The position numbers and the translations under genes are program-made. A stretch of 8,314 bases of DNA from a virus (lineage: Duplodnaviria; Heunggongvirae; Uroviricota; Caudoviricetes), in IMG/VR virus record IMGVR_UViG_2778261154_000010, positions 1 through 8,314 of that record; one strand, written 5' to 3'. The notes under the pieces were generated by a model that was not told the DNA's origin, did no database searches, and saw only the letters and a list, made by a program, of their open reading frames with translations. Positions 3,976 to 6,357 of the stretch are shown here, piece after piece. The first letter of the stretch is position 1; every line of letters begins with the position of its first letter.

Positions 3976-4335
3976 TTATAATCCCACCAAGCTTTCCAAG
4001 GGGATACCAAATTGATTATGAAGACGGCGAATCATTGGTAACGTAAGGCTTCTGGTGCCATTCAACACCTCGTAAACCCGATTTTTTTTCCCAATTGCGG
4101 GTTCCAAATCTTTCACGGTCAGCCCCTGCTGTTCCATGCGAAATCTTATAGCTTCAATTGGGGATGGTGGCTCAATGGGATAATGTTTTTTTTCATATTC
4201 CTCTATTAGCAAACACATCACCTCAAAGAAATCCCCCTCAGGCGTGTTAATTTCCGGTTCATTGTCGAACATAGGCTCAACAGCACGCAACGCGGCTTCA
4301 TAATCTTGCTCTGTACGAATAGGTTTGATGTTCAT
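3976..4335 (-). CDS. higA: HigA-like antitoxin (XRE-family HTH) of a type II toxin-antitoxin pair
   Basis: 119-aa ORF starting 2 nt after the toxin stop, with GGAG 5 nt upstream. C-terminal HTH (GLTVKDLEPAIGKKNRVYEVLNGTRSLTLPMIRRLHNQFGI) typical of HigA antitoxins. Toxin-first gene order is typical of HigBA. Confidence 0.75.
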   Translation of the reverse strand: MNIKPIRTEQDYEAALRAVEPMFDNEPEINTPEGDFFEVMCLLIEEYEKKHYPIEPPSPIEAIRFRMEQQGLTVKDLEPAIGKKNRVYEVLNGTRSLTLPMIRRLHNQFGIPLESLVGL

Positions 4336-4337
4336 GC

Positions 4338-4640
4338 TTACTCCAGTTCGATGGTATCAGCATCAATGGCATCGTATTCCTTGTGGCTTCCGATGAATTT
4401 AACAAATACCCATCCTCGCTGATACGCAATTGCAACAATTAAACGGTAATGATTACCTTTTATGTTGAATACCACACGCCGGCTTTTCAATATACTAGCC
4501 GTTCGGTATTGTGCCTTAATGTCTGCCGGGCTTTTCCAGTCAGCTTTTGCTGCCTCATCCACCCATGCCCTTAGCGGTTGTTCTGCATCGGGATTCTCCG
4601 CCCAAAAATCCCTGAGTGTTTTAACTGAGATGATCTTCAT
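4338..4640 (-). CDS. higB: HigB-like toxin (RelE/ParE superfamily mRNA interferase)
   Basis: ORF track 4338..4685; I prefer the ATG at 4640 (MKIISVKTLRDFW..., 100 aa) because a sigma70-like promoter sits inside the upstream extension. The motif NIKGNHYRLIVAIAYQRGWVFVKFIGSHKEYD parallels the E. coli HigB C-terminal region as recalled. Confidence 0.7.
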   Translation of the reverse strand: MKIISVKTLRDFWAENPDAEQPLRAWVDEAAKADWKSPADIKAQYRTASILKSRRVVFNIKGNHYRLIVAIAYQRGWVFVKFIGSHKEYDAIDADTIELE

Positions 4641-4646
4641 AACTGC

Positions 4647-4675
4647 ATGATAGTCCCATTTTGGGACTAATGCAA
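4647..4675 (-). promoter_or_regulatory. Putative higBA promoter with a palindromic operator in the spacer
   Basis: Minus strand reads TTGCAT - 17 nt - TATCAT, with the perfect inverted repeat TAGTCCCA-AAA-TGGGACTA (4651-4669) filling the spacer. The -10 ends 6 nt before the ATG at 4640, implying a leaderless or near-leaderless toxin mRNA. Confidence 0.5.
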
Positions 4676-4683
4676 TCGTTCGC

Positions 4684-4743
4684 AATTACAAATTTAATAA
4701 TAAATATATTGACCAATTAAATTTTAATTTGTAGATTGTATCC
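4684..4743 (+). promoter_or_regulatory. Putative early-left (dicB-operon, Pb-like) promoter with repressor operators
   Basis: -35 TTGACC (4709-4714), 17-bp spacer, -10 TAGATT (4732-4737). The 15-mer AATTACAAATTTAAT (4684-4698) lies just upstream of the -35 and its degenerate inverted partner (ATTAAATTTTAATTTGTA) fills the spacer. Confidence 0.55.
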
Positions 4744-4912
4744 ATCAACCCACCCCGCCCCACAGAACGCAGGGCAATACTTCGAGTTACCAGGCAGTGG
4801 TCAGGGGTTAAGTAGCCAGCCCGAGGCGTAAGAACATGACGGCAGGGTTCAAATTTTGCAGTGCAGCAGGTTTTAGTTCCGCCACCCGGCGTTAAGGGGA
4901 AATGAGGTCAAC

Positions 4913-5068
4913 ATGAATACTATCGATCTTGGCAACAACGAATCTCTGGTATGTGGCGTGTTCCCCAACCAGGATGGAACGTTCACCGCCATGACTTATA
5001 CCAAAAGCAAAACGTTTAAAACCGAAGCTGGCGCGCGTCGCTGGCTGGAAAGAAACTCAGGTGAGTGA
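4913..5068 (+). CDS. ydfA: YdfA-like small protein (51 aa)
   Basis: ATG at 4913 with GAGG 5 nt upstream; MNTIDLGNNESLVCGVFPNQDGTFTAMTYTKSKTFKTEAGARRWLERNSGE. Size and position as first gene of a ydfABC-dicF-dicB operon as in Qin; below the ORF-track length cutoff. Confidence 0.7.
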   Translation: MNTIDLGNNESLVCGVFPNQDGTFTAMTYTKSKTFKTEAGARRWLERNSGE

Positions 5069-5069
5069 T

Positions 5070-5198
5070 ATGGATTTCGACACAATCATGGAAAAGGCTT
5101 ACGAAGAATACTTCGAAGGCCTTGCCGAAGGCGAAGAAGCTCTCAGCTTCAGCGAATTTAAACAGGCGCTTTCCAGTTCGGCAAAATCTAACGGCTGA
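5070..5198 (+). CDS. ydfB: YdfB-like small protein (42 aa)
   Basis: ATG at 5070, 1 nt after the ydfA stop, with AGGTGA 6 nt upstream; MDFDTIMEKAYEEYFEGLAEGEEALSFSEFKQALSSSAKSNG. The ORF track instead shows a 90-aa ORF in another frame (5065..5337), which I reject. Confidence 0.7.
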   Translation: MDFDTIMEKAYEEYFEGLAEGEEALSFSEFKQALSSSAKSNG

Positions 5199-5226
5199 TA
5201 AGCGAAACAGCACGCGAGGAATCAGT

Positions 5227-5337
5227 ATGCAGAAACGAGAACCCGTCATCATCGCGCCAGACTATACCGATGATGAACTTTATGAGTGGATTTTGGCGGC
5301 ATCAGTTTCATTGCTGGCTGATGTCCGCCCTTTTTAA
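5227..5337 (+). CDS. YdfC-like short ORF (36 aa) whose 3-prime end reads through the DicF-like sRNA sequence
   Basis: ATG at 5227 with GAGGA 6 nt upstream; MQKREPVIIAPDYTDDELYEW.... The stop TAA lies in the terminator T-tract. Shorter than K-12 YdfC as I recall it, and the tail may be fortuitous translation of the sRNA region. Confidence 0.4.
   Translation: MQKREPVIIAPDYTDDELYEWILAASVSLLADVRPF
5279..5335 (+). ncRNA. dicF: DicF-like small RNA (cell-division inhibitor sRNA of dicB-type operons), divergent variant
   Basis: The core GGCGGCATCAGTTTCATTGCTGGCTGATGTCCGCCCTTTTT closely resembles K-12 DicF as recalled, and the following AAAGTGAATTTTGTGATG..GGTGAATGCGGCT.AGCGCACGCGG also resembles the K-12 downstream sequence. 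The 5-prime end is set by processing and is approximate. Confidence 0.7.
5295..5335 (+). terminator. Rho-independent terminator forming the DicF 3-prime end
   Basis: Stem GGCGG-c-ATCAG (5295-5305) pairs with CTGAT-gt-CCGCC (5318-5329), leaving a 12-nt loop, followed by CTTTTT (5330-5335). Confidence 0.65.
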
Positions 5338-5619
5338 AGTGAATTTTGTGATGCGGTGAATGCGGCTAAGCGCACGCGGCACAGTTAAAAGTCATGTTAG
5401 TCCTTATTGTTTTGGGTGGGAAAGCCGACTGTAATTGTTAACTGGTTAACGTCACCTGGAGGCACTAGGCACCGCATCAACAAAGTTCACTTCGGTGATG
5501 AAAGGAAAGAGAAAATGTTGAATGTAGCTATTGAAAACCAGAACGGGTGGAATTATAGTGCACCTGCACCTCATAAAACGGGTGCCGGGATTAGCACCCC
5601 GAAAGTTACTCGAGCGCAT

Positions 5620-5642
5620 AACCGCGCTGAAGCGGTTTTTTT
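5620..5642 (+). terminator. Short hairpin plus T7 tract; weak candidate intrinsic terminator or attenuator
   Basis: AACCGC-gctgaa-GCGGTT followed by a run of seven T (5636-5642). The stem is only 6 bp, so function is uncertain. Confidence 0.3.
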
Positions 5643-5808
5643 ATGCGTAATGCACAGCTACATTCAAATTATGGTGAGGCGTGCGGGGCAGCCGCAAGGC
5701 TGGCCGGGTTCTCGAGTGACCGGTAGTGCTAACCCTGTGCGTCTCACCACCCATGAGATTAGCACCTCTGGTGGTGAGTTAATTAACTTATCACTTGAGG
5801 ATGTCATT

Positions 5809-6357
5809 ATGGCTACTACCCTTTCTCACCCTGACGTAACCATCGAAAATGGTCGCGCCGTCACTACTTCTATTTCGATTGCTGAGTTTTTTGGCAAGCA
5901 GCATCACCATGTTGTTCAAAAAATAGAATCCCTCGAATGTTCTGAACTATTTTTAACCAGCAACTTTTCGCGGGTTAAATTTGAACACCGCGGCAATTCT
6001 TATAACGCCTACCAAATCACCAAAAACGGCTTCGTTTTCCTGGTGATGGGCTTCACTGGCAAAAAAGCCGCTGCATTCAAAGAGGCATACATTGCTGAGT
6101 TCGACCGCATGGAGGCCGAACTGCGCCAGAATAACACCCCACCTGCTGACAAGATGATTCCGGGTGATGGTCGCACTCTGGTTGTTCACTTCGACAAATT
6201 CGGCAATGTCGAATTCACCGAAACCGTTCCTGATGGCGCACTGGTCTGTACCCTGGAGACTTTCCGGTTTTATCTGGAAAAACAGGGATGGACTCTTGTT
6301 AACCGGGGCGCAATTAAAAATATGACTGTGGAACAATTACTCAAAATTCATTGTTGA
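5809..6357 (+). CDS. rha: Phage regulatory protein Rha (pRha domain) inserted between DicF and dicB
   Basis: MATTLSHPDVTIENGRAVTTSISIAEFFGKQHHHVVQKIESL...FVFLVMGFTGKKAAAFKEAYIAEFDRMEAEL matches the Rha-family N-terminal domain as recalled. GAGG sits 8 nt upstream of the ATG at 5809. The ORF track extends the frame to 5407, but the extension is not protein-like. Confidence 0.75.
   Translation: MATTLSHPDVTIENGRAVTTSISIAEFFGKQHHHVVQKIESLECSELFLTSNFSRVKFEHRGNSYNAYQITKNGFVFLVMGFTGKKAAAFKEAYIAEFDRMEAELRQNNTPPADKMIPGDGRTLVVHFDKFGNVEFTETVPDGALVCTLETFRFYLEKQGWTLVNRGAIKNMTVEQLLKIHC

Follow-up and report, generated by a model that had tools for sequence, protein, structure and literature searches.

The closest described counterpart of the locus analyzed here is the small RNA DicF of the Escherichia coli K-12 Qin prophage (RF00039; b1574). 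Its hallmarks are an Hfq-bound RNA of about 53 nt and filamentation of cells that express it. The DicF species of K-12 derive from a transcript that starts 5′ of ydfA, with the 53-nt DicF requiring RNase E and a 190-nt precursor requiring RNase III, and both cleavage sites lie upstream of the terminator hairpin (PMC10448788). The K-12 hairpin homologous to the one described below gives rise to a 1,146-nt ydfABC-dicF transcript besides read-through species (PMC10448788). The 5′ end of DicF pairs with xylR and pykA, and its 3′ region pairs with the ribosome-binding site of ftsZ (PMC5069750). Discussions of DicF copy number and function in pathogenic E. coli usually treat the copies as equivalent, but the alleles differ in their 5′ regions.

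The window, meaning the whole 8,314-nt stretch of viral DNA analyzed here, carries on its plus strand a ydfA-like gene (DUF1391; 4913 to 5068; Pfam E = 1.6e-29), which aligns to K-12 ydfA, forms the first cistron of a dicB-operon-like early transcript, and is annotated as "DUF1391 family protein" in the near-identical E. coli CFSAN029787. It is followed by a ydfB-like gene of 42 aa (5070 to 5198, plus strand) that aligns to K-12 ydfB and is called ydfB in the near-identical locus L001, then by a ydfC-like frame that runs into a DicF-like hairpin. Further downstream, an isrK-like RNA (5566 to 5642, plus strand; Rfam, 68.5 bits against a gathering score of 50) and a C4-like antisense RNA (5667 to 5754, plus strand; 78.6 bits against 45) belong to a P1 immI-like antirepressor module (5566 to 5754) that stands where K-12 has dicB. 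A sequence-only reading had interpreted positions 5279 to 5337 as a divergent DicF whose altered 5′ region could shift its set of target mRNAs. The alignments indicate instead that this locus is the start of ydfC joined to the DicF terminator hairpin by a deletion of approximately 0.5 kb. We consider it very probable that the element is a DicF allele truncated at its 5′ end, that it belongs to an Escherichia lambdoid prophage, where it lies in the early-left (dicB-type) operon, and that it does not act as DicF. The ydfC-dicF fusion is ordinary prophage decay and not a diverged DicF sRNA.

The origin of the 5′ part was established by aligning window positions 5200 to 5530 to the K-12 Qin prophage (NC_000913.3; ydfC, 1648823 to 1649041; dicF, 1649382 to 1649434). 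The window matches K-12 without mismatch from 5′ of the ydfC start codon to position 5291 (ydfC nt 1 to 65), resumes 3′ of this position at nt 13 of K-12 DicF (TTTGGCGG...), and past the junction is collinear with K-12 through the hairpin base, the T-tract, and the 3′ flank. The K-12 stretch that has no counterpart in the window amounts to 506 nt and comprises ydfC codons 23 to 72, a 340-nt spacer, and DicF nt 1 to 12. The deletion junction falls at 5291/5292 on the plus strand (window letters ...gatgatgaa ctttatgagtggat|tttggcggcatcagtttcattgctggctgatgtccgccctttttaaag), with an ambiguity of 1 nt (T), in the alignments both to K-12 Qin and to an intact allele of a second type, class II, in E. 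coli RMDEC465 (locus L158), which shows one gap of approximately 0.5 kb relative to the window with the same breakpoints as in the K-12 alignment. Microhomology at the junction is at most 1 nt, and the event is therefore best described as a simple illegitimate deletion.

The 5′ part does differ from that of K-12 DicF, as the sequence-only reading had observed, but positions 5279 to 5291 are 100% identical to K-12 ydfC codons 18 to 22 (L-Y-E-W plus two bases), and K-12 contains the same 13 bases within its own ydfC, approximately 500 nt 5′ of its own dicF. Judged from these alignments, the 5′ part of the window element (TTTATGAGTGGATTTT) is ydfC sequence and not a true DicF variant, and the likeness between tttatgagtggat in the window and tttctggtgacgt at the 5′ end of K-12 DicF is coincidental. 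Of the interval originally assigned to DicF, only positions 5292 to 5335 are DicF derived. In a megablast search of 5,426 complete E. coli genomes, a 174-nt query (5227 to 5400) matched approximately 2,670 genomes as two pieces lying some 672 nt apart, and in three copies of the fused locus (L001, L155, and L156) PGAP calls a truncated pseudogene at this place ("ydfC, incomplete, missing C-terminus"). Two other accounts of the junction were considered and rejected. An insertion in K-12 is at odds with the full ydfC and spacer being the state of thousands of genomes and of every intact allele class, with the breakpoint lying inside coding sequence, and with the fused state occurring as one identical junction in only 8 genomes. 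A homology-assisted deletion between look-alike stretches of ydfC and DicF is at odds with the different 5′ region of the parent class and with the near lack of microhomology.

That parent class was recognized through the hairpin. An exact search of IMG/VR for the window hairpin returned 33 contigs, 32 of which have retained the conserved spacer, together with a 5′ region that bears no relation to that of K-12 (CCATGTTGATT(A/GGT/TGT)ACCTTT, i.e., ..CCATGTTGATTACCTTTT, ..GATTGGTACCTTT, or ..GATTTGTACCTTT); the ydfC fusion was found in a single contig of the 33, L010. Intact class II alleles are the likely parent of the window allele. In RMDEC465 (L158, 1481 to 1530) and SE11 (H91), their hairpin (GGCGGCATCAGTTTCATTGCTGGCTGATGTCCGCC) and 3′ flank are identical or nearly identical to those of the window, and some intact copies are followed by a Rha-type downstream module, as in the window. 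RMDEC465 displays the complete order of ydfA, ydfB, full ydfC, spacer, class II DicF-like allele, and Rha-type module. The class II parents keep the full ydfC, the spacer, and a single-stranded 5′ region of their own (..CCAUGUUGAUUACCUUUU), whereas the window has none of the three. An intact class II query had matches in 209 genomes, 81 of which matched at least 80% of the query, its 5′ region included, and among the matches listed no RefSeq feature lies under the query. The exact class II hairpin had no match in GTDB contigs representing one genome per species, a result that is uninformative on species spread.

What remains of DicF in the window is a remnant at 5292 to 5335 (plus strand), recognized from its fold, a terminator scan, and a sub-threshold Rfam DicF match. 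It consists of a U-run (5292 to 5294), a hairpin (5295 to 5329), C5330, and a U-tract (5331 to 5335). The hairpin arms span 5295 to 5307 and 5316 to 5329 around an 8-nt loop (5308 to 5315), with a bulged U at 5324. The predicted structure has 13 bp and this one bulge, with a folding energy of −21 kcal/mol (z = −3.48; none of 200 dinucleotide shuffles folded as well), and the terminator scan also selected this hairpin together with the T5 at 5331 to 5335. Positions 5295 to 5335 therefore have the predicted form of an intrinsic terminator, a G+C-rich stem-loop followed directly by a U-tract. The resemblance of the hairpin and downstream flank to K-12 DicF, noted in the sequence-only reading, holds as orthology. 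The hairpin and the next 60 nt are orthologous to K-12 dicF and its 3′ flank, positions 5331 to 5390 are nearly identical to K-12 in the alignment, and the flank itself (AAAGTGAATTTTGTGATG...; 5336 to 5390, plus strand) is nearly identical in K-12 and in all DicF alleles sampled. The window thus shares with K-12 DicF the slot after ydfA-ydfB-ydfC in the early-left operon, the hairpin base (GGCGG...CCGCC), the U-tract, the 3′ flank, and the U-run directly 5′ of the hairpin, and the terminator hairpin and U-tract are orthologous in position, with ydfA-ydfB-ydfC′ upstream. It differs from K-12 in the loop and upper stem, which come from another allele, in lacking DicF nt 1 to 12 and the upstream RNase E and RNase III sites, in the enclosure of the hairpin within a translated frame, and in the replacement of dicB by the isrK/C4/Rha module.

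An Rfam scan of the window at gathering thresholds found no DicF and returned only C4 and isrK. A permissive scan of positions 5150 to 5450 (301 nt) gave a DicF match at 5281 to 5330 with 43.3 bits (E = 1.9e-08), below the DicF gathering score of 48; the sequence-only reading had itself named failure in a covariance-model search as grounds for abandoning its assignment, and at the curated Rfam threshold the search fails. The letters matched by the model concentrate in the hairpin. The intact class II allele of RMDEC465, which has nearly the same hairpin and another 5′ region, scores lower still (38.0 bits), so the score of the window reflects the hairpin and not the 5′ part. All four intact class II copies checked (L158, L004, L003, and L005) fall below the DicF gathering score. 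The window element is not filed as a member of the DicF family: it scores below this threshold, and neither the seed nor the ftsZ complementarity nor the processing sites are present. A terminator hairpin by itself can give a covariance-model match a good E-value, and what looks like a "diverged seed" may prove to be adjoining coding sequence that a deletion has placed there. The locus should be annotated as "ydfC pseudogene fused to a dicF terminator remnant" and not as a new DicF paralog with new targets.

The deletion also bears on processing and on target recognition. Both mapped cleavage sites, for RNase III and for RNase E, fall in the 506 nt that are absent here. The single-stranded 5′ seed for xylR and pykA (UUUCUGGUGACGUUU) is missing, with DicF nt 1 to 12 replaced by ydfC codons 18 to 22, so that the altered 5′ end results from deletion and not from the divergence of a seed toward other targets. 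The class II loop has no CUCC anti-Shine-Dalgarno stretch complementary to ftsZ. Because the xylR/pykA seed is gone and the loop lacks this stretch, the element is not expected to have DicF activity.

Pairing predictions took in two known targets, ftsZ (−45 to +30) and the xylR translation initiation region. Binding energies were calculated by minimum free energy cofolding as the energy of the cofold minus those of the two partners folded alone, and 200 shuffled targets served as the control; these cofold energies replaced RNAduplex energies, which disregard intramolecular structure and were large and uninformative for all alleles. As the positive control, K-12 DicF recovered the known ftsZ duplex and the published xylR site at +7 to +19, with energies of −11.9 kcal/mol for ftsZ (12 of 200 shuffles as good) and −15.3 kcal/mol for xylR (0 of 200). 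The window RNA (5279 to 5335) reached −4.1 kcal/mol with ftsZ (129 of 200) and −4.1 kcal/mol with xylR (161 of 200). The corresponding values for an intact class II allele were −3.6 kcal/mol (127 of 200) and −1.5 kcal/mol (174 of 200), and an intact class III allele gave −6.6 kcal/mol with ftsZ (145 of 200). Predicted pairing by the window RNA and by the intact non-K-12 alleles was thus no better than with shuffled targets, unlike that of K-12 DicF, and the pairing check proposed with the original DicF assignment did not bear it out for ftsZ or xylR.

The retained 5′ part of ydfC (5227 to 5291, plus strand) begins with the start codon, comprises 21 intact codons plus the first 2 nt of codon 22, and is preceded by an AGGA Shine-Dalgarno sequence at 5216 to 5219. 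The fused frame read from the sequence and the open reading frame list, here called ydfC′ (5227 to 5337, plus strand), encodes 36 aa (MQKREPVIIAPDYTDDELYEWILAASVSLLADVRPF) and does read through the hairpin, as had been described. Its last 15 codons (from codon 22, which spans the junction, to codon 36) cross the DicF U-run and hairpin. The frame encloses the entire hairpin, and its stop codon TAA (5335 to 5337) overlaps the last T of the T-tract. Of the 72 residues of full-length YdfC, residues 1 to 21 are kept, followed by 15 unrelated residues. The 36-aa product matched no Pfam family; public protein databases list exactly this product on 64 contigs, under the name "putative prophage protein". 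The frame crosses the hairpin as a side effect of the fusion. The suggestion that the same nucleotides are both translated and processed into an sRNA is therefore correct as to the overlap, but the overlap is a fusion artifact that more likely conflicts with sRNA production.

On the basis of its structure and its homology to the experimentally defined DicF terminator, the remnant is most likely a working intrinsic terminator of the ydfA-ydfB-ydfC′ transcript. As the alignments show, a single deletion took out ydfC codons 23 to 72, the single-stranded 5′ seed, and the structured spacer bearing the cleavage sites for both RNases, and left ydfC codon 22 abutting the U-run and the terminator hairpin. 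The remnant would still end or attenuate the ydfA-ydfB-ydfC′ transcript ahead of the isrK/C4/Rha antirepressor module. The overlap of hairpin and frame would more likely hinder the production of an sRNA than add a second function. A ribosome on the hairpin could suppress termination, and any transcript whose 3′ end falls in the U-tract, no further than 5336, would lack a complete UAA (5335 to 5337) and become a nonstop message. Nonstop messages are subject to ribosome rescue (tmRNA mediated) and decay. According to one study, intrinsic terminators near or inside coding regions are repressed when ribosomes follow RNA polymerase closely, yet those in the first 100 bp of a coding region still work efficiently (PMC4824070). 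The hairpin occupies nt 69 to 103 of the 111-nt ydfC′ frame, and these two findings together make the effect of ydfC′ translation on termination uncertain.

Other explanations of the locus start from the same features. The DicF-derived U-run, hairpin, and U-tail, which constitute the Hfq-binding module in DicF, are intact, and stretches resembling the RNase E consensus RN|WUU can be picked out by eye 5′ of the hairpin (AC|UUUAU, 5277 to 5283; GA|UUUU, 5289 to 5294). Both observations count against reading the locus as a remnant, and both would suit a new sRNA, that is, an Hfq-binding RNA derived from the mRNA 3′ end that was created by the fusion, is cut by RNase E from the ydfABC′ mRNA, and acts on new targets through the class II loop, through what was once ydfC coding sequence (UUUAUGAGUGGAUUUU), or through both. 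The allele is moreover unchanged across different prophage mosaics, and DicF was the founding case of an sRNA from an mRNA 3′ end (PMC9438474). We nevertheless regard such an RNA as unlikely. The allele is rare (8 of 5,426 genomes) and of single origin, so that it offers no sequence variation that could reveal selection; its candidate seed is translated coding sequence, a transcript terminated here would leave the overlapping frame without a stop codon, the deletion removed the known processing sites, and no pairing to known DicF targets is predicted. Any RNA made here would be a terminator-proximal 3′ fragment like CpxQ, SroC, and SdhX (PMC9438474), but those sRNAs lie in the 3′ untranslated region after the stop codon, whereas the whole hairpin of the window is in frame and the stop overlaps the U-tract. 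Very unlikely, in our estimate, is a translation-gated attenuator kept for its usefulness, in which read-through into isrK/C4/Rha and recE/gam/xis would depend on ydfC′ translation. A stop codon overlapping the U-tract and a hairpin entirely within the frame are what such a device would need, ribosomes near RNA polymerase do repress terminators near or inside coding regions (PMC4824070), and K-12 makes both terminated (ydfABC-dicF) and read-through transcripts (PMC10448788). Set against this are the efficiency of terminators in the first 100 bp (PMC4824070), with the hairpin at nt 69 to 103 here; a promoter-like site (TTGAAA-17-TATAGT, 5531 to 5559) just upstream of isrK that would serve the downstream module; and the rarity and single origin of the arrangement, which offers no evidence of selection.

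The view with which the analysis of this locus began, an orthologous DicF whose 5′ region diverged by substitutions and shifted its target set, with a full ydfC-like gene overlapping it by chance, is scarcely credible. It can draw on the Rfam model, which aligns UAUGAGUGGAUUUU to the DicF 5′ consensus at a total E value of 1.9e-08, but that score is below threshold and derives from the hairpin, and the intact class II allele is lower still. Positions 5279 to 5291 are identical to ydfC codons 18 to 22, the frame has half the length of YdfC (36 versus 72 aa) and is a pseudogene by annotation, and the intact alleles with exactly this hairpin have an unrelated 5′ region. Taken together, the alignments to K-12 Qin, the IMG/VR class II contigs, and L158 refute this view.

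The frequency of the fusion was estimated with a 44-nt query centered on the junction, each flank of which is too short to seed a match alone. Its 12 matches, each with 100% identity, lie in 8 of the 5,426 complete E. coli genomes, and it had no match in 50,697 phage records. E. coli CFSAN029787, O121 201805972, and FDAARGOS_943 are among the carrier strains. The window and loci L001, L010, L155, and L156 are identical over 5217 to 5370, and the five copies diverge in ydfA, in the spacer 3′ of 5390, and in the Rha gene. The fusion copies sit beside two different replication/immunity modules, one with replication protein P, a DnaT-like protein, and HigBA and the other with a DnaB-type helicase. 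These comparisons point to one deletion event, the product of which would later have moved among prophage mosaics by recombination. Persistence of the allele in at least two prophage backgrounds fits neutrality and also a retained function, and by itself is no proof of function. Two copies of the identical ydfC′-dicF′ fusion are present in 4 of the 8 carrier genomes (CFSAN029787, RMDEC332, RMDEC364, and VL46). RMDEC332 was the one examined, and there each copy sits in a prophage of its own, the two prophages differing in replication and repressor genes, which is evidence of exchange between resident prophages.

The dicF slot is modular. Besides the K-12 type, it holds class II alleles (5′ region ..CCATGTTGATTACCTTTT, loop TTTCATTGCTGG), class III alleles (5′ region ..CATTGCTGTGTGTAGTCCT, loop TTTTTTTCTTGAAGTTCGG), and alleles in which 5′ and hairpin modules have recombined, and the slot is followed by dicB, Rha, or another gene. 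The alleles compared were those of IMG/VR loci L003 to L153 (e.g., L004, 5439 to 5473; L036; L081) and of E. coli loci L157 and L158, together with the window slot at 5292 to 5335. It would be a long step from there to a hypervariable sRNA cassette in which at least three 5′ seed types and several loop types recombine freely, with most non-K-12 types unannotated and below the Rfam threshold, and in which the seedless, in-frame allele of the window was retained, either as an RNA that binds Hfq and carries a new seed or as an attenuator through which translation controls read-through into the C4/antirepressor module, and we think this improbable. The dicF 3′ flank pattern was found in 13 stretches in GTDB species representatives, all from Escherichia/Shigella except for two metagenome-assembled genome contigs that are labeled otherwise. 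The reverse complement of the class II 5′ region (AAAAGGUAAUCAACAUGG) resembles a Shine-Dalgarno sequence followed by AUG, a likeness that suggests a putative mRNA target of this region. A search of 158 loci for a phage-encoded target, using the class II 5′ reverse complement AGGTAATCAACAT, returned dicF loci only.

The surroundings of the slot also differ from K-12. A HigB/HigA-type toxin-antitoxin pair (3976 to 4685, minus strand), so annotated in the near-identical L001, separates the dicA-like repressor gene from ydfA, and the promoter region upstream of ydfA therefore differs from that of K-12, to which homology begins only at 4875. The related intact locus L158 has RelB/RelE at the HigB/HigA position. 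On the downstream side, PGAP annotates a coding sequence at 5515 to 6357 as "Rha family phage regulatory protein", residues 14 to 105 of which match the Pfam family Phage_ASH (PF10554). The nucleotides of this coding sequence also score well above gathering for isrK, which has its own terminator at 5620 to 5642, and for C4. Either the start of the Rha coding sequence is overextended across a P1 immI-like c4/antirepressor leader or the region is dual coded, and some of what the Pfam Ash family models may be conserved RNA genes. A box (TAATTGTTAACTGGTTAACGTCACCTGGAGGCAC; window positions 5432 to 5480) is conserved upstream of the gene that follows dicF, which is dicB in K-12 and Rha here. It contains AACGTCACC, complementary to the 5′ end of K-12 DicF (GGUGACGUU), and the box and DicF could form a long-range stem in K-12-type transcripts, the DicF partner of which is deleted in the window.
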